The notes under the pieces: model-generated
Seen by the model: only the letters and a program-made list of their open reading frames with translations
The model's database searches: none
Told to the model about the DNA's origin: nothing
Assembly (NCBI GenBank): GCA_963692945.1
Contig: OY843585.1
Coordinates: 930,001 to 962,000 of the forward strand
Length of the DNA stretch: 32,000 bases
Reading direction: 5' to 3'
From: Bdellovibrionales bacterium
GTDB taxonomy: Bacteria; Bdellovibrionota; Bdellovibrionia; Bdellovibrionales; UBA1609
Translations under genes and position numbers: made by a program
Part shown: positions 1 to 29,230 of the stretch, one piece after another
Position numbering within the stretch: the first letter of the stretch is position 1
Layout: each line of letters starts with the position of its first letter

Positions 1-3000
1 AAATAAAGTTTGAGATTTTATATTAATAAAAGGGTTGTCAGGTGGGGAGTTTTTGAAGCCTACAGATCCAGAAATAATTTTAAATTCTTGATCTCTAAAT
101 AGGATTAAATTGTCTTCTCTTGCTGTTGAAATATTGAAATCTCCTGTAAGAGAAGGTGATTGTAAGGTGCCAAAAATAGATGAACTGCCTTCAATAGATG
201 AGTTTAAAACAGAGTTATTGATAGATAGAGGTTGTTTTGTTTCTATTTTAAATTGGAGTTGAAAAGGTGAGAATTTTTTAGATTTTTTTTGTCCTGTTAA
301 AGAATAGTAGTTTGCTATGTTCATTTTTGTATTTGAAAAATTTTTTGTAATTGTTCCAGAGTTAATCATGTAATGACCATTTAGAAGATAAGGATATCTG
401 TTCCCTGTGATTTTTACAAATCCATCTCCTTCTGTTGAAAAATCTTTAGGTAGGTTTAAATGAATATTTGAAAAATTGAAAAAAAGATCAACTGTTGGAG
501 GATTTATAAAATTATAAAGGATATAACCACTTCCTGAGCTAGACCCTAAACCTATAGAGCTTTTAAATTTAGAAATTTTTATTTTTGTATTATTTATTTG
601 AAGAGAAGAGTTGATGTTAGAGAAATCTGGCAAAGTGTCTATAGAGATAGTTCCATTCTTGATTTTTACAGTTCCTTGAGGATTCCATTGTTTTAGATTT
701 CTACTTGTTATTAAATGGGTTTGAATATTTCCATCTAAATTGTTTAGGGCAGGAAATAATATAGAGATAAAAGATAACGAAGTGTCTCCCGATAAGAGCA
801 ATTGGTTATCTTTTTTTTGAATTCTAAATTTTTTCCGATTGTATTGAGAGAAAGATACAGGGTCTAAGAGCCAAGCTTCTTTTGAAAAAGAAATAGAAAA
901 AGGTTTTTTGCTTTTTAACCATTTTTTTTCTTTAAAAAGGAAAAAGTCTTTTATGTGTAAATGCCCTTTCCAAAATCTACTTTTAGTTTGGCTGATAAAT
1001 AAGTTGATATTTCCTTTTAATCTTGAATAGTAGTTCTCTGTCGTTTCTTTCTGATTTTTTGCTCTCAGTATTTTTATAAGGTCAAAATTAAAAAAGTCTC
1101 CATGGATAAAGATAGGTTCTTGTTTTGAAAAAGGATAGTAGAATTTTTTAATTAAAAATTTATTGATGATATTTCCAGAAAGAGTTAAGCCTTTTTTGTT
1201 AATGCTTATTTTAGCTTTTGTGTCCTCTACAGAAAAAGTGTAGAGAAAAGCATCTGAAACACTAAATTCTCCGACTCCTTTAGGATTTTTTAAAGCACCT
1301 AGAATTTTCATATTAAAATTTAAAAATCCCGATTGTTTAAAAGGTAAAAAGGAAGTTAATAAATTTGAACTTTCTATAGATAAATTTGTTCCTTTTACAG
1401 TTAAGTTGAAATTTTTGTTAAAATCTCCTGAAGCTGTAATGAGTCCAGAGCCTTTTGTTAAAGAGAGGTTTTTTAAAAGACCCTGTCCTTCTTTTGAAGA
1501 AATATCAAAGTCAACTCTTTGAAAAATTTCTTTTTGAATATGCGTATTAAAGAAATTTCCAGAAAGATCAAAAGAAAGATTTTTCTTAGAGTTCCAAGGT
1601 TTTTTTATAAAAAAAGCTGCTGTTCCTGTTCCTTTAATATCCAGAGGCCATTTAATATTTGCTTCAATGGCTTGCTTAATATCTTGAATGTCTATAAAGG
1701 AAAAGGTTCCTTTGACAATCGATTCTTTTTTATTGAAATCTATAGAACAATATCCTTGAAAATGACTTTTTCCAGGAATAGATTTTATGTTTTTAAAAAT
1801 GATTTTTTGATTTTTGAAATTAAATTGGCTGGTGATGGTTTTTAACTTGTACTTTTCTATTTCTAATAAGTCAGAATTAAGATAACCTTTTGCTGTAAAA
1901 ATTCCTTTATTCAATTTAAATAAGCTGTTTTCTAATTTGATAGATCCTTTTAAATCAAGAGGTGTATTAAAGGCTATATCTCTATTTAATTCAGCAAATC
2001 CATCACCGATTATGGTGAGAAGATTTGATGAAGGTTTGTATTTTCCTATAATTTGGAGGAGAGAGCTGTCTTCTTTTTTAGCTGTAATTTCAAAGTTAAG
2101 TATTTTATTTTTCCATTCTATAGATAGATCTGTATCCATCTTATAAAATGAGATTATTCTTTCTTTCCAATTGGTTATATCTATTTGAGGAGATTGACTT
2201 TTTATTTTACAATCCACATACAAATCAATATTTCCTATGCATTTAACAGTTCCATTGATATCAGCTATTACAGGTAAACGAATATCTATAGTATCCTTTA
2301 AGAAAGAAGAGGCTTTTAAATTGCGAACTTGCAAGGATAAATTGTATTGTATAGGAAGAGAATTAAATAAAATTTCCACTTTATCAAAGTTAATAAAGGA
2401 TAGGGAATCTATTTTTATAAATCCTTGATCTATAAGAGCTGTTTTATTTAAAAGACGTCCTTTAGCGGAAAAAGATTTATAGGGTTTATTTTTAAATATA
2501 AAATCAGAACTTTGAATCTGAAACTGACCTTTGTAACCCTTTTTTTTGTTAAACTGTATATTCAAATCATAAGAGATGAGAGAAGTGATATTTATATCTG
2601 TCTTTCCAAGAATTTTTAAAATTTGATTGATTGAAGAAAAGGGTATTTTCCCAGAACTTTTTAATTTGAGATTTTTTAGCCCTCTAGAGTTAAGTAAAAT
2701 TTCCAAAAAACTTGTTTTCACGTTTAAGGTGTCATTAGATAAAGTCATTTTTTCTACATAGATTCTGTTTTTTTCAATAAGGCCTTTTGATTTAAGAAAA
2801 AAGGAATTTTCTTGGTTAACAAAAACTTTTTTAATTGAATTTGTAAAGTAATAACCTTGAGAACTTTTTCTCTGAATATCCCAATCTATATCCATGAGTC
2901 TTAGAGTGTTGTCTTTATGAGTTAAAGTGAGGTTTGTATTTTTAATGATTATTCTTTTTATAGGAAGATTAAAATCTGCAGGACGAGTTTTATAGGTTTT

Positions 3001-3405
3001 TTGTATGTTATTGTTAGTTTGAATATTGAGAGTTCCATAATCCATTTTTACTTTTGATAGCATTATGGTTTTTTTTAGCATCAGGGAAAGTAAGCTGGGG
3101 CGAATATTTATAGATTTTACAGTTTGTGCTCCATTTAGAATTATAAAAAAATTATTTTTTTTTGATGTAGATAGGTTGGTATTTTCTAAAGTCACATTCT
3201 CTAAATTTATACTCATACTTAAAAGTTTAAAATTCAATTTCTCCCAATGGATTTTTAAGCCAATTTGTTTCTGAAAGTTTTCTACTAATGTTTGAGATTT
3301 CAAATGGAGGAATTCTTCTATTTTTTTATTGATCTGATGTAAGCTGAGAGGTGTTAGAAGGAATAATAAAAGTAGGAATGTCAAAAGTAGGAAAGTTTTT
3401 TTCAT
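1..3405 (-). CDS. Very large envelope protein, N-terminal 1135 codons only (continues past position 1). Best guess is an AsmA/TamB-like outer-membrane biogenesis protein.
   Basis: ATG at 3405 (cat 3403-3405 on +) opens MKKTFLLLTFLLLLFLLTPLSLHQINKK..., a hydrophobic signal-anchor. I read the + triplets in phase 1,4,7... over 1-420, 1501-1620, 2401-2460 and 3001-3060 and found no tta/cta/tca, so the minus frame stays open to the window edge. It is absent from the ORF track only because there is no in-window stop. The product guess rests on size, the N-terminal anchor and a monotonous N/K/L/T/I-rich beta-like sequence, not on a diagnostic motif. Confidence 0.7.
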   Translation of the reverse strand, partial: MKKTFLLLTFLLLLFLLTPLSLHQINKKIEEFLHLKSQTLVENFQKQIGLKIHWEKLNFKLLSMSINLENVTLENTNLSTSKKNNFFIILNGAQTVKSINIRPSLLSLMLKKTIMLSKVKMDYGTLNIQTNNNIQKTYKTRPADFNLPIKRIIIKNTNLTLTHKDNTLRLMDIDWDIQRKSSQGYYFTNSIKKVFVNQENSFFLKSKGLIEKNRIYVEKMTLSNDTLNVKTSFLEILLNSRGLKNLKLKSSGKIPFSSINQILKILGKTDINITSLISYDLNIQFNKKKGYKGQFQIQSSDFIFKNKPYKSFSAKGRLLNKTALIDQGFIKIDSLSFINFDKVEILFNSLPIQYNLSLQVRNLKASSFLKDTIDIRLPVIADINGTVKCIGNIDLYVDCKIKSQSPQIDITNWKERIISFYKMDTDLSIEWKNKILNFEITAKKEDSSLLQIIGKYKPSSNLLTIIGDGFAELNRDIAFNTPLDLKGSIKLENSLFKLNKGIFTAKGYLNSDLLEIEKYKLKTITSQFNFKNQKIIFKNIKSIPGKSHFQGYCSIDFNKKESIVKGTFSFIDIQDIKQAIEANIKWPLDIKGTGTAAFFIKKPWNSKKNLSFDLSGNFFNTHIQKEIFQRVDFDISSKEGQGLLKNLSLTKGSGLITASGDFNKNFNLTVKGTNLSIESSNLLTSFLPFKQSGFLNFNMKILGALKNPKGVGEFSVSDAFLYTFSVEDTKAKISINKKGLTLSGNIINKFLIKKFYYPFSKQEPIFIHGDFFNFDLIKILRAKNQKETTENYYSRLKGNINLFISQTKSRFWKGHLHIKDFFLFKEKKWLKSKKPFSISFSKEAWLLDPVSFSQYNRKKFRIQKKDNQLLLSGDTSLSFISILFPALNNLDGNIQTHLITSRNLKQWNPQGTVKIKNGTISIDTLPDFSNINSSLQINNTKIKISKFKSSIGLGSSSGSGYILYNFINPPTVDLFFNFSNIHLNLPKDFSTEGDGFVKITGNRYPYLLNGHYMINSGTITKNFSNTKMNIANYYSLTGQKKSKKFSPFQLQFKIETKQPLSINNSVLNSSIEGSSSIFGTLQSPSLTGDFNISTAREDNLILFRDQEFKIISGSVGFKNSPPDNPFINIKSQTLF

Positions 3406-7847: not shown

Positions 7848-8962
7848 TTATTGGTGTTCCAAAAGAAATTAAAAACTCAGAATATAGAGTGGGTTTAACA
7901 GAGACTAATGTTGGTTCTCTTGTGGAAAAAGGTCATAAAGTTTTAATTCAAAAAGGGGCTGGAGAAGGTTGTCAAATTTTTGATGAAGCTTATAAGAAAG
8001 TAGGAGCTCATTTAGTTGATACTCTTTCTGAAGTTTATAAAAATTCAGATATGATAGTGAAAGTTAAAGAACCTCTTGTAGAAGAGTATGATCTTTTTAA
8101 AGAGAATCAAATCTTATTTACTTTTTTGCATTTGGCAGCTGAATCTAAACTCACAGATGTTTTATGTTCTAAAAAAGTTAAAGCTGTTGCTTATGAAACT
8201 ATAGAAAATGAAGATGGAGAACTGCCTCTTTTGAAACCTATGAGTCAAGTTGCAGGAAGAGTTGGTCTTCAAAATGGAATTTATTATCTTCAAAAACACA
8301 ATGGAGGCAAGGGGGTTTTAGCAGGAGGTATTTCTGGTGTAAAACCGGCTCATATTGTTATTTTAGGAGGAGGAATGGCTGGAATTCATGCGGCTATGAT
8401 GGCTGTGGGATTGGAAGCTAAAGTGACCATTTTAGATATTAGTGAAGATAAGTTAAAGTCTTTAGATCAGTTTTTTGGAGGAAAAGTTAGTATGTTGTTA
8501 TCCAATAAAGAGTCTCTTTCTTCTATTGTAAAAGAAGCAGATCTGTTGATTGGATCGGTTTTGCTTAAGGGTGAAAAGGCTCCAAAATTAGTGACAGAAA
8601 AAATGATTCAAACCATGTCAAAAGATAGTGTTGTCGTTGATATATCTATAGATCAAGGAGGTTGTATAGAAACAGCTCGCCCCACATCTCATGAAAAACC
8701 AACTTATAAAGTTCATGATGTGATTCACTATTGTGTTCCTAATATACCAAGTTCTGTATCTAGAACTTCAACTTATGCTTTAACAAATGTGAGTTATCCT
8801 TATGTGTTAGAGATTGCTGAACAAAATTTGGAAGTTGCTATTAAAAATAATTTGGGACTGAGTAAGGGGTTAAATACTTATGGGGGGCATGTGACTTATC
8901 TTCCTGTTTCTAAAGCTCTTAATAAGGAATACAAATCTTTTCAAGATGTAGGTTTTCTCTAG
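7844..8962 (+). CDS. ald: Alanine dehydrogenase
   Basis: MIIGVPKEIKNSEYRVGLT N-terminus and NAD-binding VILGGGMAGIHAA. The TTG start at 7844 overlaps the ruvB TGA (TTGA), suggesting translational coupling. The last 15 nt (8948-8962) are identical to the repeat unit at 11111-11125. Confidence 0.9.
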   Translation: MIIGVPKEIKNSEYRVGLTETNVGSLVEKGHKVLIQKGAGEGCQIFDEAYKKVGAHLVDTLSEVYKNSDMIVKVKEPLVEEYDLFKENQILFTFLHLAAESKLTDVLCSKKVKAVAYETIENEDGELPLLKPMSQVAGRVGLQNGIYYLQKHNGGKGVLAGGISGVKPAHIVILGGGMAGIHAAMMAVGLEAKVTILDISEDKLKSLDQFFGGKVSMLLSNKESLSSIVKEADLLIGSVLLKGEKAPKLVTEKMIQTMSKDSVVVDISIDQGGCIETARPTSHEKPTYKVHDVIHYCVPNIPSSVSRTSTYALTNVSYPYVLEIAEQNLEVAIKNNLGLSKGLNTYGGHVTYLPVSKALNKEYKSFQDVGFL

Positions 8963-9086
8963 GAATACCCTCATGCAAAAACCAGTAGGTTTTCTCTATG
9001 AAACTCTACTTATTTTCTGAACTTGAAGAGTGTCCCTTTTACGATGAAAGGTCAGAAAATAAGTAGAGTAACACTAGAGTTTTGTA
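8963..9086. repeat. Composite structured repeat, copy R1 (left part truncated)
   Basis: It contains a 25-nt unit at 8975-8999 (gcaaaaaccagtaggttttctctat), hairpin A at 9003-9069 and the terminal motif actagagttttgta at 9073-9086. It is near-identical to 11184-11300. Confidence 0.9.
9003..9069. repeat. Hairpin A, copy 1: perfect 18-bp stem and 31-nt loop
   Basis: actctacttattttctga (9003-9020) is the exact reverse complement of tcagaaaataagtagagt (9052-9069). The loop is acttgaagagtgtcccttttacgatgaaagg. Confidence 0.9.
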
Positions 9087-9140
9087 AAACAGGCATGGTT
9101 TTTGCATATAGTTTATGGTAAACTAAAAAAAGGAGAAATA

Positions 9141-9740
9141 ATGAGTAATAAATCTACTGTTTTAGAGGCTAAAGCTTATTTTGCAGAAATTTGGAAACTT
9201 TTCAACGAGCAAAAAGAGTACGATAAACAAACGGCAATGGAGCGAAAAGAATATGAAAAAAAAGCAGCAGAAGATATTAAAGAGCTCCGAGCTAGCCTAA
9301 AAGCGACTGACCTAAAATTCAATGGTCACTGGGGTAAGTTGATGGAGACTTTAGTTGAAGGAGATTTAGTGAAACTTCTAAAACAAAAAGGTATCCAAGT
9401 TGATCGGACGGCAACAAATATACTGAAAAAACACGGGGAACAACAATTTGAATTTGATATTTTAGCTTTCAATGGGGAAGAGATCGTTGTTGTAGAAGTG
9501 AAAACAACTTTAGATATTAAAGAGTTGAATTATTTCATTAAGAAATTAAATAGAGTTACGGATTTTATGCCAGAATTTAAAGGTAAAAAAGTTTATGGAG
9601 CCGTTGCGTATTTAAAAGCCAACCAATCTTCTGACAAAAGAGCTGAGAAAGAGGGTTTGTTTGTGATAAGAGCGACAGGAAGCAGTTCCAGTATTGTTAA
9701 TAAGCAGAGTTTTAAACCCAAAGCTTTTACAAAACTCTAG
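9141..9740 (+). CDS. PD-(D/E)XK (restriction-endonuclease fold) nuclease-like protein with N-terminal charged coiled-coil
   Basis: FEFDILAFNGEEIVVVEVKTTL fits the D...(D/E)xK signature, and the N-terminal 60 aa are K/E-rich and helical. I place the start at ATG 9141, preceded by AGGAG at 9131-9135, whereas the track begins at 9102. The last four codons plus stop (acaaaactctag) lie in the 14-nt repeat motif. Confidence 0.6.
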   Translation: MSNKSTVLEAKAYFAEIWKLFNEQKEYDKQTAMERKEYEKKAAEDIKELRASLKATDLKFNGHWGKLMETLVEGDLVKLLKQKGIQVDRTATNILKKHGEQQFEFDILAFNGEEIVVVEVKTTLDIKELNYFIKKLNRVTDFMPEFKGKKVYGAVAYLKANQSSDKRAEKEGLFVIRATGSSSSIVNKQSFKPKAFTKL

Positions 9741-9903
9741 TTCTTTCCTTTTTATTTTCACGAGATTTGAAGAGCAAAGCCCTTCATGCAAAAACCAGTA
9801 GGTTTTCTCTATGTTAAAACTTTCATTTTCACGAGATTTGAAGAACATCTCTCCTGTGATGAAAAGCTCGTGAAAATGAAAGTTCACACACTAGAGTTTT
9901 GTA
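9728..9903. repeat. Composite structured repeat, copy R2, bounded by perfect 14-bp inverted repeats
   Basis: tacaaaactctagt (9728-9741) is the reverse complement of actagagttttgta (9890-9903). Inside are a half-unit at 9752-9787, a 25-nt unit at 9788-9812 and hairpin B at 9818-9884. Segment 9752-9813 matches 11153-11214 at 61 of 62 positions. Confidence 0.9.
9818..9884. repeat. Hairpin B: perfect 18-bp stem and 31-nt loop, same geometry as hairpin A with a different stem sequence
   Basis: aactttcattttcacgag (9818-9835) is the exact reverse complement of ctcgtgaaaatgaaagtt (9867-9884). The loop atttgaagaacatctctcctgtgatgaaaag shares TTGAAGA and GATGAAA(A)G with the hairpin A loop. Confidence 0.9.
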
Positions 9904-9989
9904 GATGTCTTCTCAAGACGATTTACTCTTTTGAGAAGTGAATTTAGATTCTCTTTGAGAGATTCATTTTCTTTTTGAGGGTTCACGAG
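9891..9989 (-). pseudogene. Relic of the 3' end of a tail-fibre-like gene (about 30 codons plus stop)
   Basis: 9891-9976 aligns by eye without gaps to 11288-11373, with 7 mismatches in about 86 nt. It translates as ...ENESLKENLNSLLKRVNRLEKTSTKL*, against ...KENTSLKENLNSLIKRVNRLEKTTTKL* for the intact gene. An in-frame upstream stop lies at 9990-9992. Confidence 0.8.
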
Positions 9990-10173
9990 TTAAAAAGGTT
10001 TTACCTATGTGACTTCTTAATTAGCGAAACAGAGAGAGGATTCATTCTCACGCAAACAAAAAAATTTTATATTCCTGTCTATTCTATGTACAAAAAAACC
10101 CGACTAAGATAAAGGAAAAAAGACTTTCTTGGTTTATACAAGATCATCCAGTTACTTATAAAAACAGAGAATA

Positions 10174-10845
10174 TCAAGACCAGTTTTTTGGCTTGAACAT
10201 TCCATTGACTCTATTGGGAAATTGACTTTCTTTTAAATGACTTTCTTTCAACCTTAAGGTCTTATTTGATATTCTTCTTAAATCCATATGAGTTTCCACC
10301 TTAAAGGGTGTAATGACTACTATTTTCTTCCTTAATTTGTTCCGAGCAAATCTAAGAGGCAATTTTAAATCTGTATCATTTGACAATAATACTACATAGT
10401 CCACGTTTCCCTTACAACAATCATATATAATATGTGTCGCTATATTAACATCTGTTTCTTTTTCTTCGTGCTTAGGAAATTGAAAGATACTTCCTCTTAA
10501 AAGGCTCTTTATTTGCTCTAAGTTTTTAGAGTTCCCTTGCAAAATAGACAATCTTTCTATTTGGTTATTTTTTATTTTTATATGTCTTTTTTTGAACTTA
10601 CCATAAACTATTTCAACTTTTTGAAGAGTCCTTAGAGCAGTTAACCATACATTCTGGTTTTGTGTTGAGTTTGAAAATGGAGTTTTAGCTGTAAAATATT
10701 TTATTTTAATTATCTTATTTAAAGAAGGATCTAAAACAAGGCTAATAAGTTTCTCTATGTTAAGCCATTTATAGGGAGTATCTTTTAATGAATAATAGAG
10801 GTTAAATCCGTCAATATAAACAATGGTATTAGAAGTAGGGAGCAT
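10174..10845 (-). CDS. NYN-domain (PIN-like/LabA-like) predicted ribonuclease
   Basis: IVYIDGFNLYY N-terminal acidic motif, EKETDVNIATHIIYD, and DYVVLLSNDTDLKLPLRFAR followed by KKIVVITP. This order of conserved Asp motifs is typical of NYN domains. Confidence 0.75.
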   Translation of the reverse strand: MLPTSNTIVYIDGFNLYYSLKDTPYKWLNIEKLISLVLDPSLNKIIKIKYFTAKTPFSNSTQNQNVWLTALRTLQKVEIVYGKFKKRHIKIKNNQIERLSILQGNSKNLEQIKSLLRGSIFQFPKHEEKETDVNIATHIIYDCCKGNVDYVVLLSNDTDLKLPLRFARNKLRKKIVVITPFKVETHMDLRRISNKTLRLKESHLKESQFPNRVNGMFKPKNWS

Positions 10846-10859
10846 AAATATTTGGCCAT

Positions 10860-10889
10860 AAAAAAACGAAGGCGATCTTTCAATCGCCT
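10860..10889 (-). terminator. Rho-independent terminator-like hairpin ending 15 nt upstream of the NYN start codon
   Basis: The minus strand reads AGGCGAT-TGAAAG-ATCGCCT (7-bp GC-rich stem, 10870-10876 and 10883-10889), then TCG and T7 (A7 at 10860-10866 on +). Confidence 0.6.
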
Positions 10890-10928
10890 CGCACCTCCCA
10901 GCCGTAGCCGAAGAGGGAAATCACTACT

Positions 10929-10956
10929 AGTATATATACACTAGATAAAAAGTCAA
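10929..10956 (-). promoter_or_regulatory. Sigma70-like promoter TTGACT-N16-TATACT
   Basis: On the minus strand the -35 TTGACT is at 10956-10951 and the -10 TATACT at 10934-10929. It would start a transcript of about 60 nt that runs into the terminator at 10860-10889. Confidence 0.45.
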
Positions 10957-11014
10957 ATCTTATCTTCTTATCTTAATTTTAACATATTTACACTATATGT
11001 TATCGGACTATTAT

Positions 11015-11125
11015 CTGAAAAACTTAAGTTTTTCTCTAGAAATACCTTTTGCGAAAACCAGTAAGATTTCTCTAAGCGAAAACCAGTAAGATTTCTCTAA
11101 GCGAAAACCAGTAGGTTTTCTCTAG
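11015..11125. repeat. Tandem array of the 25-nt mini-hairpin unit (one diverged plus three head-to-tail copies)
   Basis: Unit at 11015-11039 is ctgaaaaacttaagtttttctctag. Units at 11051-11075 and 11076-11100 are both gcgaaaaccagtaagatttctctaa. Unit at 11101-11125 is gcgaaaaccagtaggttttctctag. There are no spacers between the last three. Confidence 0.9.
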
Positions 11126-11150
11126 TTCAAACATAAGTTTATTAAGTAAC

Positions 11151-11300
11151 TCTTATTTTCACGAGATTTGAAGAGCAAAGCCCTTCATGCGAAAACCAGT
11201 AGGTTTTCTCTATGAAACTCTACTTATTTTCTGAACTTGAAGAGTGTCCCTCTTACGATGAAAGGTCAGAAAATAAGTAGAGTAACACTAGAGTTTTGTA
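11151..11300. repeat. Composite structured repeat, copy R3 (full length)
   Basis: It contains a half-unit at 11153-11188, a 25-nt unit at 11189-11213, hairpin A at 11217-11283 and the terminal motif actagagttttgta at 11287-11300, which holds the fibre gene stop. Confidence 0.9.
11217..11283. repeat. Hairpin A, copy 2: perfect 18-bp stem and 31-nt loop
   Basis: 11217-11234 is the reverse complement of 11266-11283. The loop differs from copy 1 at one base (ctctt versus ctttt), a position that could pair with aagag within the loop (G-C versus G-U). Confidence 0.9.
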
Positions 11301-13435
11301 GTTGTCTTCTCAAGACGATTCACTCTTTTGATAAGTGAGTTTAGATTCTCTTTAAGAGATGTATTTTCTTTTTTCAAAGAAGTGAGTTCTCTTTCTAGTT
11401 TTTTATTTGTAGATGCTAATTTCTTCTTTGTTTGAAGTTGTGTCTCTTTTAGTTTTTTTGTCATTTCTTTTGTGGTGGTTTTTACATCATCTGAAGTTTG
11501 TTTAAGTTTAATTTTTGTTTCTTCAATTTGACTTTGGCTCGCTCCCAACTCTTTTTTAACAGTTAAAAACTCTGTTTGAAAAGTCTTTTTTAAATCAGCT
11601 AGAGATTTTGTAAGAGCCGATACAGACTCTTTAAGAAAGTTTAGAGTTTTTGTTGTGGAGCCATAAAATTCTTTAAAGGCTTTTATGATAACAGGAATAA
11701 GCCCTTGATAGTTTAAACTTAAAGTCTTTTTTGGATCTGAACCTTCCAACACTAACTCTGGGTATTCTTTTTGAACCTCTTGAGCAATAAGACCTATCTG
11801 TTTTGTTTGAACTTTATGTTTGTCTTTCCAGTAAAAAGTTTTTGGGTTTAATTTTAAAAGAGAATGGCTTTGATTTTTTAAATCCTTTATCTTGGTTTTG
11901 AGTCTTCGGTCTGATGATGTTTCTGGGAAAAGCCATGCAGGAAGAGTAGGAGAAGACACATTGGTATCCAAGGTGAAATAATCTGAAATACGTCCCGGAG
12001 TAGTAGTAGATTTTTTAACCTTTAATTCGCCATCTATAATCAAATCCCCATGTATTGTAACTTGTCTTTCATCAACTACAACAGGGGCAGTTTCATACCT
12101 TAAATTCCCTGTGATTAAACCACCGATATCTAGTTTGTAACTTTCATCTTCACAAGCAACAGATTTACAGCCAGATCTATGTCCAATAGCAATATTATTA
12201 CTTCCAGTTTTGTTTAAAAGACCTGCAAAGGATCCAAAAAAATTGTTCTCTCTTCCAGTTGTGTTTCCAGTACCTGCAAAGAATCCAAAAAAACTATTCT
12301 TATGTCCACCTATGTTTTGACCACCTGCAAAGGATCCAAAAAAATTGTTCTCTTTTCCAGTTGTGTTTCCAATACCTGCACCACTTCCAAAAAAACTGTT
12401 ACTATCTCCAGTTTCGTTTGTATAACCTGCTTCATATCCAAAAAAACTGTTATTATTTCCAGTTATGTTTGAATAACCTGCACCACTTCCAAAGAAATTG
12501 TTATACTTTCCACCTATGTTTGCACGACCCGCTTGATTTCCAAAAAAACTGTTATTATGTCCACTTGTGTTTGCACGACCTGCAAGGTATCCAAAAAAAC
12601 TGTTAACACCTCCAGTTGTGTTTGAAAGACCTGCACTCCTTCCAAAAAAACTGTTCCACTTTCCACCTGTGTTTTCATGACCTGCTTTATAACCCACAAA
12701 AGTATTCCCTTCACCTGTGTTTGTTGAATTAAGTCTTTTTGTTGATTTCCCTGCTCCAAAACCAAAAGCCGTGTGCTTATCTACACTTACCTCTGTTGTA
12801 TCTCCACAACCAACTAAGCTTAAACTTAATTCACCTGTAGAATCATCTGTCACTTTATAACAATTTGGATTCCCACTCCCACCAACAACTGCATCACCAC
12901 AAACATTTTTAGCATAAGTCAAAGTGGTTGTATCAGCTATGATTAACTCTACCACTTTTTCCACCTCTGTTTTTCTGGTTGCATGAGTAGTAGCTGGTAA
13001 AGCATCTATCTGTGTCTGTATATTTGTAGGAAGACCAGACTTCCCATCTGCTTTATCAATAATTTCTTCATAAAAAAGAGAACAGCATTGAGTGGCTTTT
13101 ACTGGAATATTAAAATCCCATTCTGAACTCAAAGTTCCTGTCCCTCCTGTTAAGTGAATGATTTTAGGTCTTTTTTCATCTGGCACAGCTGTTTTACAAT
13201 CTATTAAATGTTTATCGGTTGCTAAATTAGGATCACACTTCCTAAAATTAAATGTCCAACCTGTTGGTTTATTTGGAGTATAACTATTTAATATGCTTAA
13301 ACATTTTTTACCAGCCTCTGTGTTTGTTAAATTATCTTCACTTGCAAACCTGTCTATAATGGATTGAGATTGAATCACTTTCCAAAGTTCAGTATTAGAA
13401 TCTTTTATTTTTTTTTGTGAAGTGGATTGTTGCAT
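11288..13435 (-). CDS. Phage-tail-fibre-like surface protein. It has a Cys-containing N-terminal region, ten 17-aa NSFFGxxAGxxNTxGxx repeats, an S74-type intramolecular chaperone (autoprocessing) domain and a coiled-coil tail.
   Basis: The repeats are read directly from the translation. SSDRRLKTKIKDL...QIGLIAQEVQKEYPELV...LNYQGLIPVIIKAFKE matches the SDxRxK...GxIAQEV..P..V pattern of the tail-spike/endosialidase C-terminal chaperone domain. The annotated Met is probably not the true start (see the 13436-13671 segment). Confidence 0.8.
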   Translation of the reverse strand: MQQSTSQKKIKDSNTELWKVIQSQSIIDRFASEDNLTNTEAGKKCLSILNSYTPNKPTGWTFNFRKCDPNLATDKHLIDCKTAVPDEKRPKIIHLTGGTGTLSSEWDFNIPVKATQCCSLFYEEIIDKADGKSGLPTNIQTQIDALPATTHATRKTEVEKVVELIIADTTTLTYAKNVCGDAVVGGSGNPNCYKVTDDSTGELSLSLVGCGDTTEVSVDKHTAFGFGAGKSTKRLNSTNTGEGNTFVGYKAGHENTGGKWNSFFGRSAGLSNTTGGVNSFFGYLAGRANTSGHNNSFFGNQAGRANIGGKYNNFFGSGAGYSNITGNNNSFFGYEAGYTNETGDSNSFFGSGAGIGNTTGKENNFFGSFAGGQNIGGHKNSFFGFFAGTGNTTGRENNFFGSFAGLLNKTGSNNIAIGHRSGCKSVACEDESYKLDIGGLITGNLRYETAPVVVDERQVTIHGDLIIDGELKVKKSTTTPGRISDYFTLDTNVSSPTLPAWLFPETSSDRRLKTKIKDLKNQSHSLLKLNPKTFYWKDKHKVQTKQIGLIAQEVQKEYPELVLEGSDPKKTLSLNYQGLIPVIIKAFKEFYGSTTKTLNFLKESVSALTKSLADLKKTFQTEFLTVKKELGASQSQIEETKIKLKQTSDDVKTTTKEMTKKLKETQLQTKKKLASTNKKLERELTSLKKENTSLKENLNSLIKRVNRLEKTTTKL
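12170..12706 (-). repeat. In-frame 51-bp (17-codon) tandem repeats within the fibre gene
   Basis: ccaaaaaaa(c/t)tgtt...cctgca units recur every 51 nt on the + strand. They generate the shadow ORFs 12259-12606 (+) and 12514-12765 (-). Confidence 0.85.
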
Positions 13436-13671
13436 AATAGATGTCCCAACTCCTAAAATAACGATAGCCCCTATTGCCGATGCAATAACAACACTAATAA
13501 TAGCAGAACCTTTTTGATTTAAATAAGAAGGGTTGTTGTTTTTTAAAAGAAAGGAAAGTTTGTGAAATAAAAGAAATTTACATTTTAAAAGTAAATGGGG
13601 GGGGGGGGTAGAAAGATTTTTTTAAAATAAAAAAGAGATTTTCTAGCTCTAGATTTAAAAGCTTTTTTCAT
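13436..13671 (-). other. Out-of-frame 5' segment of the fibre gene: start codon, basic N-terminus, poly-Pro and transmembrane helix
   Basis: ATG 13671 gives MKKAFKSRARKSLFYFKKIFLPPPPIYF, with a stop at 13585. In the fibre frame, 13596-13436 is open and encodes HLLLKCKFLLFHKLSFLLKNNNPSYLNQKGSAIISVVIASAIGAIVILGVGTSI directly before Met 13435. Confidence 0.7.
13597..13608 (-). repeat. G12 (C12 on the coding strand) homopolymer, a candidate slipped-strand phase-variation tract
   Basis: Counted directly: gggg at 13597-13600 plus gggggggg at 13601-13608. Confidence 0.95.
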
Positions 13672-13677
13672 AGATAA

Positions 13678-13706
13678 ATTATGAAGAAGGTTTTAAAAAA
13701 TATCAA
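13678..13706 (-). promoter_or_regulatory. Candidate promoter TTGATA-N17-CATAAT ending 6 nt before ATG 13671 (possible leaderless transcript)
   Basis: On the minus strand the -35 is at 13706-13701 and the -10 at 13683-13678. No Shine-Dalgarno lies between the -10 and the ATG. Confidence 0.35.
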
Positions 13707-13708
13707 CC

Positions 13709-13803
13709 CTAATTTTTCTAGAAGAAAGTAGGGCAAGTAAAGAAAAATCAGCCTATCTAATTTTTCTAGAAGAAAGTAGGGCAAGTAAAGAAAAATCAGC
13801 CTA
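13709..13803. repeat. Perfect 47-nt direct duplication with a 48-nt period
   Basis: ctaatttttctagaagaaagtagggcaagtaaagaaaaatcagccta occurs at 13709-13755 and again at 13757-13803, between the E1-beta stop and the fibre promoter. Confidence 0.95.
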
Positions 13804-13856
13804 AAACCTATAGTTTAGTCACTCACCTAGCAAATTAAGTCAAAATCTAAAAAACA

Positions 13857-15910: not shown

Positions 15911-17989
15911 TTATTTTTTTGGTAATCTAGCTTTTTTTAATAAGACTGTTTTATGAAGGGAGGCTAGGTCTAAAGCTATATTTGCAGCCTCTTGGACATC
16001 GGCTCGTTTTAGATATCTTTCCTTACTTTTTTTAGAGTTATATAAGTCTTCTCTATCTACTATATCTTCCATATCATCATCTTTTTTATTTAAGACTTTA
16101 GAAATTTTTATACGCTTTTTATTTTTTGATTCTATTTTTTTTATTTGTGCAAGGATTTTTTTAAAATCTTTGTTTACAGCCACTCGTTTTTTTGAAAGAA
16201 GTTTTAAGTAAGAAATTGTTTTTGAGCTAATGGGTTTCCAGTTTTTGTTTAATTGATTAGAGAAAATTTCTTTTGGAGGGGATTTAAAGTCTGCAATACT
16301 TTGTTCGGGAAGAGTGTAATCTAGATTTTTTTCACCTATATCATTCAAATTAAAGATACTAGGTAGTGAAATATCGGAAATAACTCCTCGTTTTTGAGTG
16401 GATTTTCCACTAGGTATAAAGTAAAGTCCAACCGTTGTTTTTAAAGCTCCTAAATGATTTCTTAAGTGTTCAACAGATTGAACGCTTCCTTTTCCAAAAG
16501 TGTGATCACCACCAACGATAACTGCTCTGTTGTAATTTTGTAGAGTTCCTGAAACAATTTCAGAAGCACTGGCACTCAATCGGTTCACTAAAACAACAAG
16601 GTCTCCTTTATAAAAAATTCTTGGATCTCTATCCATTAAAAGAACTGGGCTTTTATAATTTTTTTCAGATTGTTTAACAACATTGCCTTCTGCAAAGAAA
16701 AGACCTGCTAAACTAACAGCTTCATCTAGAGATCCACCTCTATTATTTGATAAGTCTAATACTAAAGAAGAGATTTGTTTTTTCTTTGCTTTATTGAGAA
16801 GGTTTTTGATATCTGTTGTTACAGACTTTCCATATCTTCCTGAACCATAAAAAGAGGGAACTTTTATAATACCAATAGTGTGAGAGTGATTCTTTAAAGT
16901 TTTCTTTACATAGTCAATAGAGGCGGCTTCTTCTACAAGATCTACAGTGCTTCTAATGATCTTCACTGTAAATATAGATTTTTGCTTCTTTTTGTTTTCT
17001 CTTAAAATTTTTAAGTAAACAGGTGTGCCTTTTTTTCCTCTAATGATAGACACAACGTCTTCTATTCTTTCCCCAAAAACATTTATTAACTTTTTTTTAG
17101 ATTGTTGTCCAACGGCTAAAATTTTATCTTTTCTTTTTAGTTTTTTAGATTTAAAAGCAGCCCCTCCAGGAACTAAGTTTTCTATAATAGTGTATCCAAA
17201 ACGGGAGCTTAAAGTGGCACCAATACCTTCAAGAGATAAATTCATTGAGATATTAAAGTCTTCCACTTCTTCACGGGTTAAGTAACTGGAATGGCTATCT
17301 AAAGATTGAGCAAAAGAATTGAGATAAAGAGAGAACCATTTTGTTGGTTTGCAAGATTGGAAACTATTATTGCTTTTTTTTATGCATTCTCTAAGTTCTT
17401 TAGGGTTGAGTTGAGGTTTCCAAGATGTAACCTGCTTAGATATATTTTTAAAAATATGGAAAATATGATTGATAGATTTTTGCAAATCATTTTCTATAAG
17501 GAAGATGTTAGCCACTTGATATTGAAGATAAGCTTCCATCAATCTGTTGGCTTTTCTTTCTGATGAGGGGTAGGTTTTTTGATCTTCATCTAAAATGTAA
17601 GTGAGGTTTGGTTTAAATTTAAAATTCTTATCAAGATATTTCTTTGCAAAATCCAATCTCTCTTTTACTCTTTTAGAATAGATATTGTAAATATGATAAA
17701 GATCAGAGCAGTTTCTATTTTTTATATTTGATAGTAAGCGATGATTTCTTTTTTCAATGGATTTTATATCAGATTTTAAAAAATAAATTTTTTCTCTATC
17801 AAGATCTTTTAAAAAATTATTTAAAACTCTTTTTTTAATTGTAGGGGTGATTTTAGAGTAGAGAATGTGATTTTTTAAGAACTGATCTTGAATGCTATTG
17901 ATATAACGACAAGAAAGGTTACCGAATCCTTGTATGGGAAAGAGAGTGACTAGAGAAATGAAAGGTAAAAAGAATTTAAAAATGAACAT
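15911..17989 (-). CDS. prc: Carboxy-terminal processing (tail-specific) protease, S41 family
   Basis: Signal peptide, PDZ-like GIGATL...VPGGAAFKSKKLKRKDKILAV, catalytic region LVLDLSNNRGGSLDEAV and SASASEIVSG...GDHTFGKGSVQ. The size is about that of Prc/Tsp. Confidence 0.85.
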   Translation of the reverse strand: MFIFKFFLPFISLVTLFPIQGFGNLSCRYINSIQDQFLKNHILYSKITPTIKKRVLNNFLKDLDREKIYFLKSDIKSIEKRNHRLLSNIKNRNCSDLYHIYNIYSKRVKERLDFAKKYLDKNFKFKPNLTYILDEDQKTYPSSERKANRLMEAYLQYQVANIFLIENDLQKSINHIFHIFKNISKQVTSWKPQLNPKELRECIKKSNNSFQSCKPTKWFSLYLNSFAQSLDSHSSYLTREEVEDFNISMNLSLEGIGATLSSRFGYTIIENLVPGGAAFKSKKLKRKDKILAVGQQSKKKLINVFGERIEDVVSIIRGKKGTPVYLKILRENKKKQKSIFTVKIIRSTVDLVEEAASIDYVKKTLKNHSHTIGIIKVPSFYGSGRYGKSVTTDIKNLLNKAKKKQISSLVLDLSNNRGGSLDEAVSLAGLFFAEGNVVKQSEKNYKSPVLLMDRDPRIFYKGDLVVLVNRLSASASEIVSGTLQNYNRAVIVGGDHTFGKGSVQSVEHLRNHLGALKTTVGLYFIPSGKSTQKRGVISDISLPSIFNLNDIGEKNLDYTLPEQSIADFKSPPKEIFSNQLNKNWKPISSKTISYLKLLSKKRVAVNKDFKKILAQIKKIESKNKKRIKISKVLNKKDDDMEDIVDREDLYNSKKSKERYLKRADVQEAANIALDLASLHKTVLLKKARLPKK

Positions 17990-23502: not shown

Positions 23503-24585
23503 TTATTCCCAATCATTTCTATTTTCTAGACGATTTTGAGATGGAATATGGTTTTGTTCAGCGGCTTTTTGATACCAGTAAAAAGCTTCTTTATTCATAT
23601 CATATTCATAGTCATGTTCATAGATATCACCTAATTCATATTGAGCATAAGTGAAGTTTTGTTTGGCTGCTCGTTTCATCCAATAGATCGCTTTTTCATA
23701 ATTTTGAGGAACTCCCTTCCCCTCAAGGTACATACGACTTAATTCATATTGAGCTATGGCTAAATCTTGGTTTGATGATTTTTCATACCAATAAAAGGCT
23801 CTCTGATAATGTCTAGGTATATATTTTTTATGGTAGTAGATATGTGCTAATTGATATTGAGCATAAGCAGAGCCTTCCTCTGATAGTTTTTTAAGTTTTT
23901 GAATTTCTCTTTCCATGTAAAGGTTTAAATTAAAATAATATCTGACTTTCTCTTCTAGAAGATTTCTGAGGTTATCTATTTTTATCATACTTAACATGTT
24001 ATGACTGGATATAAAAAGGATTCCAGCCACTTGGTTTTTTTCGTCTAGCACAGGAGAACCACTGGCTCCAAGCCAAATTATATCTTGATTAACAGGAAAA
24101 GTGTAGAAGACTTCATTGTTATTTATGAGAGGGCCTGTTTTTTCTGCTATTGTAAGGAAGCCTTTAGGGTAACCTATTACAGAAAGTTTCTCCGTAGGAA
24201 GTGGTTGTTCCTTTTTTAGTGTTAAATAATTTTCAACCTCCCCATCTATTTTAAGGATTGCTAGATCATGTAGGGAAGATATTTTTTGAATACTTTTTGC
24301 TTTTAATTTTTGAGGGTTATTGTCTTGCGATAGAATAATGTGATCAATACGATTTCTTTGCGATAAGTTATCTAAGATATGGAAATTAGTAACAAATTGA
24401 TTTGGACTTATGAAGAATCCAGTTCCTTGTGTGGTTTGACTGTTTATTTTCCATATATATTCTTTTATATTTGGTGTAGTGGTTTTTGGAGTTTTGGAAA
24501 ACACTGTATTGCAAGTAGAGATGGGGGGGGGTGTAGCAAAAGAAATATTTGAGAAAAGAAAATATAAAAAAACAAAAAATATCAT
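23503..24585 (-). CDS. Secreted trypsin-like serine protease fused to C-terminal Sel1-like repeats
   Basis: Signal peptide MIFFVFLYFLFSNISFA. The His, Asp and Ser regions are GTGFFISPNQFVTNFHIL, HDLAILKI and GASGSPVLD. The C-terminus has several AQY(Q/E)L...Y..G.GV...Y..A..WY.KAA Sel1-type repeats. Confidence 0.8.
   Translation of the reverse strand: MIFFVFLYFLFSNISFATPPPISTCNTVFSKTPKTTTPNIKEYIWKINSQTTQGTGFFISPNQFVTNFHILDNLSQRNRIDHIILSQDNNPQKLKAKSIQKISSLHDLAILKIDGEVENYLTLKKEQPLPTEKLSVIGYPKGFLTIAEKTGPLINNNEVFYTFPVNQDIIWLGASGSPVLDEKNQVAGILFISSHNMLSMIKIDNLRNLLEEKVRYYFNLNLYMEREIQKLKKLSEEGSAYAQYQLAHIYYHKKYIPRHYQRAFYWYEKSSNQDLAIAQYELSRMYLEGKGVPQNYEKAIYWMKRAAKQNFTYAQYELGDIYEHDYEYDMNKEAFYWYQKAAEQNHIPSQNRLENRNDWE
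24523..24531 (-). repeat. G9 (C9 on the coding strand) homopolymer encoding PPP right after the signal peptide
   Basis: Counted directly: 8 g at 24523-24530 plus g at 24531, corresponding to codons ccc ccc ccc of ATPPPIST. Confidence 0.95.
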
Positions 24586-27922: not shown

Positions 27923-29230
27923 ATGCCAGCTGCTGTTGTTATAGGGTCTCAATGGGGAGACGAGGGAAAGGGTAAGGTTGTTGATATTTTTTCAGCCCAA
28001 GCGGATTATGTGGTTCGCTATCAAGGTGGTTCCAATGCAGGACATACATTAAAGGTTGAAGGTCGTGAAATCATTCTCCATTTGGTCCCTTCAGGTATTC
28101 TTCACTCCAAAGTCATTTGTGTTATTGCTTGTGGTGTTGCTTTAGATGTTTTAGCAATTTGTAAAGAAATAAAAGCTCTTCAGTCTTTAGGATTACTTTC
28201 TTCTTCTCATCAACTATTGATTTCTGATTCAGCAACATTGCTTCTTAGTTACCATAGAAAATTGGATCAAGCTCGTGAAGAATGGGCTGGTCATGAAAAA
28301 ATTGGAACGACAGGAAAAGGGATAGGTCCTGCTTATGAAAGTCGTGCAGAAAGAAAATCTTTGTTATTTTCTGATCTTTTTGAGAGTAAAGATGTTTTAT
28401 ATCAAAAAATAGCGAATGGACTTAAAGAGAAAAACTTTCTTTTAGAATATTTTTACAAGAAAGAGTCTGTATCTATTGAGTCTATTTTATCTGAGGTTTT
28501 GGAGTGTCGTGAAATTTTAAAGTCTTATAGATGTAAAGACACTTCTTTAGAAATTTACAAAGCTCTTCAAGATGGAAAAAAAGTTTTATTTGAAGGGGCT
28601 CAAGGTAGCCTTCTTGATGTTTTACATGGCACTTATCCTTATGTAACAAGTTCTTCCACTTTAGCAGGGGGGGCTTTAACAAGTTGTGGTGTTGGTCCTA
28701 AAATGATCAATAAAATTTTAGCCATTACAAAGGTTTATACAACAAGGGTTGGTTCAGGTCCTTTTCCTACAGAATGTAGTGACACTGCAGAAGGTGAATA
28801 CCTTCAAGAAAAGGGTCGTGAATTTGGTGCTACCACAGGTCGGAGAAGACGCTGTGGTTGGTTAGACTTGGTGGCTTTAAAATATGCTATTCGTATCAAT
28901 GGCATTACAAACTTAGCTTTAATGAAATTAGATGTTTTAAGTGGTTTGGATGAAATTAAAATTTGTACCTCTTATAAAATGAAAGGCCAAGTGACTAAAG
29001 AATTTCCTAATTTATCTAGTCATTTGCAAATGGTAAAACCACAGTATCAAACTTTTCCTGGTTGGACAGAGGATTTGAGTCAAATACGATCTAAAAAAGA
29101 TCTTCCAGTTCAAGCGATTCAATATATAGATTTTATTTCAAAAGAATTAAATGTTCCTGTAGATGTTATCTCTGTTGGCTCTAGCCGGAATGAGACCATT
29201 TGGTTAGAATCTTTATTTGGAGATTTATAA
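27923..29230 (+). CDS. purA: Adenylosuccinate synthetase
   Basis: VVIGSQWGDEGKGKVVD, GGSNAGHT, GTTGKGIGPAY and GATTGRRRRCGWLD. Confidence 0.95.
   Translation: MPAAVVIGSQWGDEGKGKVVDIFSAQADYVVRYQGGSNAGHTLKVEGREIILHLVPSGILHSKVICVIACGVALDVLAICKEIKALQSLGLLSSSHQLLISDSATLLLSYHRKLDQAREEWAGHEKIGTTGKGIGPAYESRAERKSLLFSDLFESKDVLYQKIANGLKEKNFLLEYFYKKESVSIESILSEVLECREILKSYRCKDTSLEIYKALQDGKKVLFEGAQGSLLDVLHGTYPYVTSSSTLAGGALTSCGVGPKMINKILAITKVYTTRVGSGPFPTECSDTAEGEYLQEKGREFGATTGRRRRCGWLDLVALKYAIRINGITNLALMKLDVLSGLDEIKICTSYKMKGQVTKEFPNLSSHLQMVKPQYQTFPGWTEDLSQIRSKKDLPVQAIQYIDFISKELNVPVDVISVGSSRNETIWLESLFGDL

Follow-up and report, generated by a model that had tools for sequence, protein, structure and literature searches.

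What are the repeats that, in a small island of a Bdellovibrionales genome, keep an exact hairpin geometry on different stem sequences: folded RNAs, recombination sites or mobile elements? The three copies in question, R1, R2 and R3, lie in a stretch of 32,000 nucleotides (contig OY843585.1 of assembly GCA_963692945.1, positions 930,001 to 962,000; hereafter the window, to which all coordinates refer unless another locus is named). The gene order there is ruvC, ruvA, ruvB, ald, R1, a nuclease gene, R2, an NYN-domain gene (minus strand), R3, a tail-fibre-like gene (minus strand) and a pdhB-like gene, and the repeats occupy every gene junction of the island. The reading that we prefer, at a probability of about 0.45, is that R1 to R3 are a new, lineage-specific, modular palindromic junction repeat with the architecture of MITEs (miniature inverted-repeat transposable elements), BOX or Correia elements, reshuffled by recombination, and with a hairpin selected in single-stranded form. 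It seems to add a family to a type of bacterial repeat that is already familiar, rather than to be a new kind of system, and the likeness to MITE, BOX and Correia elements is one of architecture, not of sequence. Directly observed are the sharply defined termini, one of them inverted, the stop codons given to genes, the mosaic make-up of the copies and a duplication.

The window was searched for perfect inverted repeats with a stem of at least 12 bp and a loop of 3 to 80 nt. Exactly three were found, one in each copy, where mononucleotide shuffles gave 0 to 2 hairpins of this type. All three rod hairpins are on the plus strand and consist of an 18-bp stem and a 31-nt loop: type A in R1 (9003-9069) and, with one different loop base, in R3 (11217-11283), and type B, of the same geometry, in R2 (9818-9884). 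In R1, R2 and R3 alike, a 25-nt unit U (GCRAAAACCAGTAGGTTTTCTCTA) is followed by the hairpin and then by an end motif E (ACTAGAGTTTTGTA). The initial annotation had described this order in three copies of the same orientation, the 18-bp stems with their respective sequences, the 31-nt loops, and loop ends conserved as TTGAAGA and GATGAAA; each of these elements was recovered in all copies, and the motif TTGAAGA-N13-GATGAAA was matched 3 times in the window against 0.02 expected.

Further modules extend this picture. Unit U is present in 6 copies with at most 2 mismatches, all on the plus strand, when none is expected by chance (matches of the window scan begin at 8977, 9790, 11053, 11078, 11103 and 11191). 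One copy belongs to R1 (8975-8999, with a 6-bp mini-hairpin AAAACC-AGTA-GGTTTT), one to R2 (9788-9812) and one to R3 (11189-11213), and three stand in tandem at a 25-nt pitch just upstream of R3 (11051-11125), the mini-hairpin being disrupted in the first two. A variant unit, U0 (GAAAAAC-TTAA-GTTTTTC-TCTAG, 11017-11039, plus strand), parallels, together with its spacer, a half unit that ends ald and is described below. Motif E is exact in R1 (9073-9086), R2 (9890-9903) and R3 (11287-11300), and an exact inverted copy, E', is found on the minus strand at 9728-9741. Finally, U is preceded in R2 (9747-9787) and, at 98% identity, in R3 (11148-11188) by a half-hairpin B', which copies the left arm of type B together with the 5' portion of the loop but lacks a right arm. 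The general layout is thus E'/B', U (1 or 3), a 67-nt hairpin (A or B) and the 14-nt E, with up to five modules per copy and E' being optional. The copies annotated initially are therefore real, albeit with homology in R3 starting at 11148 and not at 11151, and with the tandem and variant U units and E' to be added.

Types A and B were aligned without gaps, and 25 standard pairs were counted. This ungapped pair count was used in place of a covariance model, as only two independent sequences are available and a MAFFT alignment of the full elements misplaced the right arms. The two types differ at 32 positions of 67, with stem and loop lengths exactly kept. Of the 25 pairs, 14 were altered on both sides, one went from G-T to A-T and none was broken, so that pairing is 100%. 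None of 500 shuffles reached the A/B values, and sliding the partners by 1 to 3 columns reduced pairing to 41-49%. That structure is kept while sequence changes, as the initial annotation had argued from three copies, is borne out by these counts, but the comparison involves two independent versions and not three, since R1 and R3 share 98% identity along 116 nt, with one base setting their hairpins apart.

The 31-nt "loop" is itself structured in both types. From base to tip, the hairpin comprises the 18 bp, a conserved A·G mismatch, 3 bp (CTT/AAG in type A, TTT/AAA in type B), a GAAGA/GATGA block, 3 apical bp (GTG/TAC in type A, ACA/TGT in type B) and a 7-nt pyrimidine loop. The GAAGA/GATGA block is invariant, two tandem G·A pairs flanking an A-T pair. 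All 10 A/B differences inside the 31-nt segment are transitions, 7 of them falling in pairs; the apical stem has changed by transitions only and contains a G-T wobble in type A. A kink-turn or box C/D-like motif has RUGAUGA and CUGA boxes whose tandem G·A pairs adjoin a 3-nt bulge; in the hairpin, GUGAUGA (type B) or ACGAUGA (type A) stands on the 3' side and UUGA on the 5' side, and the symmetric register is free of bulges. An outer stem joins the tail of U to E, in R1 by pairing of CTCTATG (8994-9000) with CA-C-TAGAG (9072-9079), and folding of the element on the plus strand gave z values of -4.5 to -6.6. Pyrimidine or C·A mismatches take the place of the purine block and of the G-T pair when the minus strand is read, which means that the conserved detail belongs to the plus strand. 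Covariation and a strand-specific invariant motif together point to selection on a single strand, probably on plus-strand RNA.

Could such stems arise with no selection at all? The hairpins might be a neutral by-product of recent segmental duplications in an island that changes fast, their arms being kept complementary by palindrome correction (template switching). Several traits fit: R1 and R3 are 98% identical, the R2 and R3 flanks 92-98%, a 230-nt direct duplication surrounds the NYN gene, decay is seen in half-hairpins and broken U units, and the 18-bp stems are free of wobble pairs. Template switching would, however, also have made the GAAGA/GATGA block, the A·G mismatch and the G·T pair complementary, and the motif is kept identical in both versions; stem and loop lengths are moreover exact in spite of the many differences between the types. 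We consider this explanation very unlikely. The related statement that the repeats are "not a decaying duplication" is correct by half: R1/R3 and the R2/R3 flanks are recent duplicates (92-98%), and the half-hairpins at 9747-9787 and 11148-11188 lack a proper partner. Likewise, the compensated mini-hairpin variant reported at 11017-11034 does exist, but the argument built on it breaks down in 2 of the 6 units: two of the tandem ones (GAAAACC-AGTA-AGATTTC) have 2 of 7 mini-hairpin pairs broken without compensation. In R1 and R2, the outermost pair of the U mini-hairpin is an A/C mismatch.

If the hairpin acts as RNA, the copies could be merely paralogous members of a structured RNA family, either small RNAs or 3' untranslated region (UTR) elements acting in cis, with no mobility function. 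Covariation, the apical stem with its G·U pair and transition-only changes, and the tandem G·A motif, of a type common in RNA, all speak for this, and each copy could be transcribed on the plus strand, as ald lies ahead of R1, the nuclease gene ahead of R2 and a promoter-like sequence at 10987-11014 ahead of R3. On the other hand, the window gave no Rfam match at gathering score, and relaxed thresholds returned weak generic microRNA-hairpin matches only (E ~0.05, 26 bits against a threshold of 82 bits). No terminator or defined RNA ends are seen, the repeat is absent from close relatives, and sharp termini, an inverted terminus and donated stop codons are features of a DNA element. A pure RNA family is thus unlikely in our view. 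Two simpler identities were discarded. Intrinsic terminators had already been dismissed in the initial annotation for want of a trailing T-run, rightly so: the stems of R1 to R3 are long (18 bp) and AT-rich, the loop has 31 nt, no T-run directly follows or lies within 10 nt, and a terminator scan reported none there. Small-peptide coding was rejected as well. The repeats overlap open reading frames (ORFs) of 20 to 22 codons, but the frame in which TTGAAGA is read differs between types A and B, hence what is conserved is not a peptide; a chimeric query joining the repeat-spanning ORFs to the fibre C-terminus found 0 annotated repeat ORFs. The window contains no tRNA gene.

The features that speak for a DNA element are found at the ends of the copies. 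Similarity among repeats stops abruptly after ...GTTTTGTA (...GTA) at three independent junctions. R2 (9728-9903, 176 nt) has perfect 14-nt terminal inverted repeats, E' at 9728-9741 being the left one, and these can be extended to 41 nt at 78%; TA is present at both of its outer ends, and also belongs to the repeated motif at R1 and R3. R1 and R3 carry the right terminus only. The termini supply gene ends: on the plus strand, E' gives ACA AAA CTC TAG (TKL-stop) to the nuclease gene, whose last codons fall inside it, while E, read on the minus strand, gives TKL-stop to the fibre gene (from R3) and to a 31-codon relic. The nuclease and fibre genes, which receive the same end, are unrelated.

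A third donated stop marks the left border of the island. The island covers about 4.9 kb (8948-13856), between the convergent stop codons of ald and of the pdhB-like gene. In four relatives (L002, L003, L086 and L087; Ald identity of the four 85, 84, 83 and 77%) these stop codons are 0 to 4 nt apart, and we conclude that 8948-13856 is a lineage-specific insertion. Its flanks are housekeeping genes in synteny with the relatives, its G+C content (33%) is the same as theirs, and the closest Ald homologues come from Oligoflexia/Bdellovibrionota. Here Ald ends in DVGFL*, compared to DLSL*, DLNL*, SFNL* or EFQI* in the four relatives. The last codons and stop of ald, GTA GGT TTT CTC TAG, are a half U that replaces the C-terminus of the relatives: this half unit, GTAGGTTTTCTCTAG (8948-8962, plus strand, the last four codons and stop), matches 11111-11125 at 15 of 15 positions. 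As a half U ends ald, the left island junction is placed at the dyad centre of a U unit. The tetranucleotide CTAG is about twice as common in 8963-13856 as in the rest of the window (3.5 against 1.6 per kb), part of this excess coming from the repeat motifs CTCTAG and CTAGAG, and a 47-nt segment (TAATTTTTCTAGAAGAAAGTAGGGCAAGTAAAGAAAAATCAGCCTA...) is perfectly duplicated in tandem at 13712-13805, close to the island's right edge, in the interval from the fibre start to the pdhB stop.

The copies are also mosaic. The left part of R3 is that of R2 (62 nt, 98%), its core that of R1 (116 nt, 98%), and its right flank that of R2 again (89 nt, 92%). A direct duplication of about 230 nt (9747-9976 and 11148-11373) consequently brackets the NYN gene, and would be the expected trace of either a single crossover with circular DNA or an unequal exchange between copies. 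It includes the relic mentioned above (9891-9986, minus strand), the last ~31 codons of a fibre-like gene, ending in ...EKTSTKL* and 92% identical to 11285-11373. A diversity-generating retroelement, which this duplicate of the fibre 3' end could evoke, was rejected, since no reverse transcriptase is present and the differences are not adenine-specific.

Outside the segment 8940-11380, no repeat copy was found in the window, in the syntenic DNA of relatives or in 88 other loci. An exact-pattern scan with a 21-nt unit retrieved none in JGI metagenomes, none in IMG/VR and 1 in GTDB representatives, in a GlpD-like coding region of a Planktophila metagenome-assembled genome; this match is taken as unrelated, because about 1 chance match is expected for 596 Gb and because it lies inside a coding region. 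Searches with 8940-11380 by blastn against phage and plasmid collections yielded no match.

The repeats could be single-stranded DNA (ssDNA) recombination sites, comparable to attC, to IS200/IS605 ends or to the hairpin of CTX phage. The island would then be an array of cassettes, put together either by a recombinase or nuclease whose gene lies elsewhere or by the neighbouring PD-(D/E)XK nuclease. Resemblance to attC sites, including those of clusters lacking an integron integrase (CALIN), is real at several levels: hairpins are co-oriented between gene cassettes, geometry is constant and stem sequence variable, the asymmetric motif that is conserved is specific to one strand, E ... E' bound the cassettes as R' ... 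R'' do in integrons, inverse core and core contain AAC...GTT, and sites overlap the stop codons of cassettes. The position of the left island junction at the dyad centre of U, and the nuclease genes at island edges described below, go in the same direction. However, the attC core consensus is RYYYAAC for R'' and GTTRRRY for R', and E/E' (ACAAAAC...GTTTTGT) agrees with it at no more than 5 of 7 positions; both the 14-bp outer and the 18-bp inner stem pair perfectly and without interruption, with neither extrahelical bases nor an unpaired central spacer; cassettes are in both orientations, and the left terminus is missing from R1 and R3. No transposase, recombinase, integrase, HUH or Xer-type gene was found in the 32 kb. 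Identification as integron attC sites was rejected on these grounds (consensus, stems, no integrase nearby), as were Xer/dif-like sites, U and E being unlike the dif consensus when compared by eye. An ssDNA site of some kind remains, in our estimate, a rather unlikely answer.

The nuclease gene deserves attention in this respect. It encodes a stand-alone PD-(D/E)XK nuclease of 199 aa (9141-9740, plus strand; Pfam Hjc and DUF8196) with a long N-terminal helix, and belongs to a large family (>2300 homologues). In the model, its nuclease domain (pLDDT 79) appears closer to the PD-(D/E)XK domains of Card1, Can2, Cdn1 and NucS than to Hjc. The 1.56-Mb genome has three paralogues of it, which are 94, 84 and 79% identical. 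All four end in F[T/Q]KL*, two residues beyond the stop of homologues from other genomes, which suggests, from protein ends, that further E' copies lie elsewhere in the genome. DUF8196 nuclease genes are multicopy per genome and often form tandem arrays in metagenome contigs. In three genomes, DUF8196/Hjc-like genes edge lineage-specific islands in conserved operons: after ald here, between murA and nuoN (L004), and after murE (L088, homologue at 10001-10573). In L004/L005, homologues are even found at both ends of a 7.3-kb island (2738-3388 and 10001-10672 in L004).

It may then be asked whether hairpin and sharp terminus make up a new ssDNA recombination or guide-like site, with which the multicopy DUF8196 nuclease would capture defence and adhesin cassettes and move them into conserved operons of small Bdellovibrio-like genomes without an integron integrase. 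We find this decidedly improbable. No R-like or comparable flanking repeats were detected at homologous nuclease genes in 80 metagenomic and 3 genomic loci, a result that counts against ssDNA sites in general, and the L004 and L088 nuclease loci have no R-like elements. A general link between the nuclease gene and bracketing inverted repeats was rejected too, z being below 2.5 in most of 67 loci; the positive loci of this survey turned out to be terminator-like palindromes repeated between tandem gene copies. L004 (45% G+C) does have structures of its own, namely a perfect 31-bp hairpin with a 58-nt loop inside the nuo operon (16551-16670) and, behind the second nuclease copy, a 125-nt MITE-like insertion (10672-10800) with inverted repeats GTTGCACATA.

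Between R2 and R3, the cargo is a predicted NYN-domain RNase gene (10174-10845, minus strand), a PADLOC HEC-09 candidate (1e-37) also matching phrog_7929. HEC-09 has been tested and gave no phage-defence phenotype (bioRxiv 10.1101/2024.01.29.577857). On the minus strand, 10862-10956 holds a promoter-like TTGACT-16-TATACT and, after it, ~65 nt that are unusually GC-rich. Two hairpins lie in these, the second being a terminator with a T7 run ending 17 nt before the NYN start codon; the stretch could be a small RNA or a leader/attenuator. The arrangement evokes a type III-like toxin-antitoxin locus of the ToxIN kind, in which the three tandem U would form an RNA antitoxin of the NYN RNase: read on the minus strand, the repeats (11125-11051) do precede a terminator-like T-run hairpin (10890-10862) and the NYN start at 10845. 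But ~160 nt and a promoter-like site separate repeats and terminator, the repeats being ~205 nt upstream of NYN. Moreover, single U units occur in R1 and R2, away from NYN; no comparable tandem array was seen upstream of NYN homologues in 80 viral loci; and the toxin candidate is an NYN protein and not ToxN, in addition to the negative phenotype of HEC-09. An antitoxin function is extremely improbable.

The last gene of the island (11288-13435, minus strand) encodes a 715-aa tail-fibre-like protein with a Peptidase_S74 chaperone domain, which resembles phage tail fibres and Bdellovibrio MAT fibres (PMC10769870). The gene contains at least 5 tandem 51-nt (17-aa) repeats of NSFFG-type units (12182-12487). 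In the 420-nt region upstream of it, a run of 12 G is found (13597-13608); further runs occur elsewhere in the window (G9 at 24523-24531, G7 at 28667-28673) and are conspicuous in DNA of 32% G+C. These could be slipped-strand phase-variation tracts.

How do the repeats compare with known families of palindromic repeats? BOX elements of S. pneumoniae are assembled from modules in the order A-B(n)-C, and they fold on transcription (PMC3049150). Like these boxA-boxB(n)-boxC elements, the present repeat has composite modules, a tandem internal module in variable number, partly complementary termini, a stem-loop predicted on transcription, and a clustered, intergenic distribution (PMC3049150). Unlike in BOX, the long hairpin is here an internal module with a G·A motif and is not formed by the termini, few copies are visible, and the host is Bdellovibrio-like; as there is no sequence similarity either, the repeat does not belong to the pneumococcal family. 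Correia elements of Neisseria (Correia repeat enclosed elements, CREE) are 100 to 160 bp long, bounded by inverted repeats, flanked by TA, form long RNA hairpins and are found at gene ends (PMC2649163, PMC2229807); RNase III binds and cuts them, and they influence genes nearby (PMC2649163). The hairpin of CREE is however made by 26-bp terminal repeats, and CREE have hundreds of copies and an integration host factor (IHF) site. Rickettsia palindromic elements are 100-150-bp palindromes of a small AT-rich genome, dispersed genome-wide, which add codons to genes by in-frame insertion inside them and show compensatory stem changes. Our repeat shares with them a small AT-rich host, the palindromic form, an overlap with coding ends to which it contributes codons, and compensatory stem changes, but its copies are at 3' ends and in one island.

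Returning to the junction repeat that we favour, the element would spread and be rearranged as DNA, through recombination among its copies and perhaps through transposition in trans, while its rod hairpin would be kept by selection on the single-stranded plus strand. The likeliest form of the latter would be RNA, carried in the 3' UTRs of ald and of the nuclease gene and, for R3, in a short transcript running through it, where the hairpin may serve as a processing or stability element, for instance as an RNase III-type substrate as in Correia elements. Several points weigh against this interpretation. Both termini are present in one copy only, R2; 0 transposase or recombinase genes are found in 32 kb; a target-site duplication is indistinguishable from the terminal TA; and the hairpin is internal, not made by the termini as in most MITEs. 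The covariation of the hairpin is a single comparison between two independent versions. Since the 18-bp stems are purely Watson-Crick, with no wobble, and the minus strand folds almost equally well, symmetry at the DNA level fits as well as RNA. Lastly, transcription of the hairpin is suggested by the sequence alone, and genome-wide dispersal by protein C-termini only.

If the favoured interpretation is correct, R1 to R3 would define a new structured junction-repeat family in a poorly sampled, reduced-genome branch of Bdellovibrionota, and would show how a small island with genes for a nuclease, for an RNase and for a fibre of the prey-recognition type was assembled and reshuffled. The recurrence of DUF8196 nuclease genes at island edges in three genomes is a separate lead. 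The hairpin, in which compensation is unusually clean and the tandem G·A motif invariant, would offer a concrete target for RNA-seq or nuclease assays.

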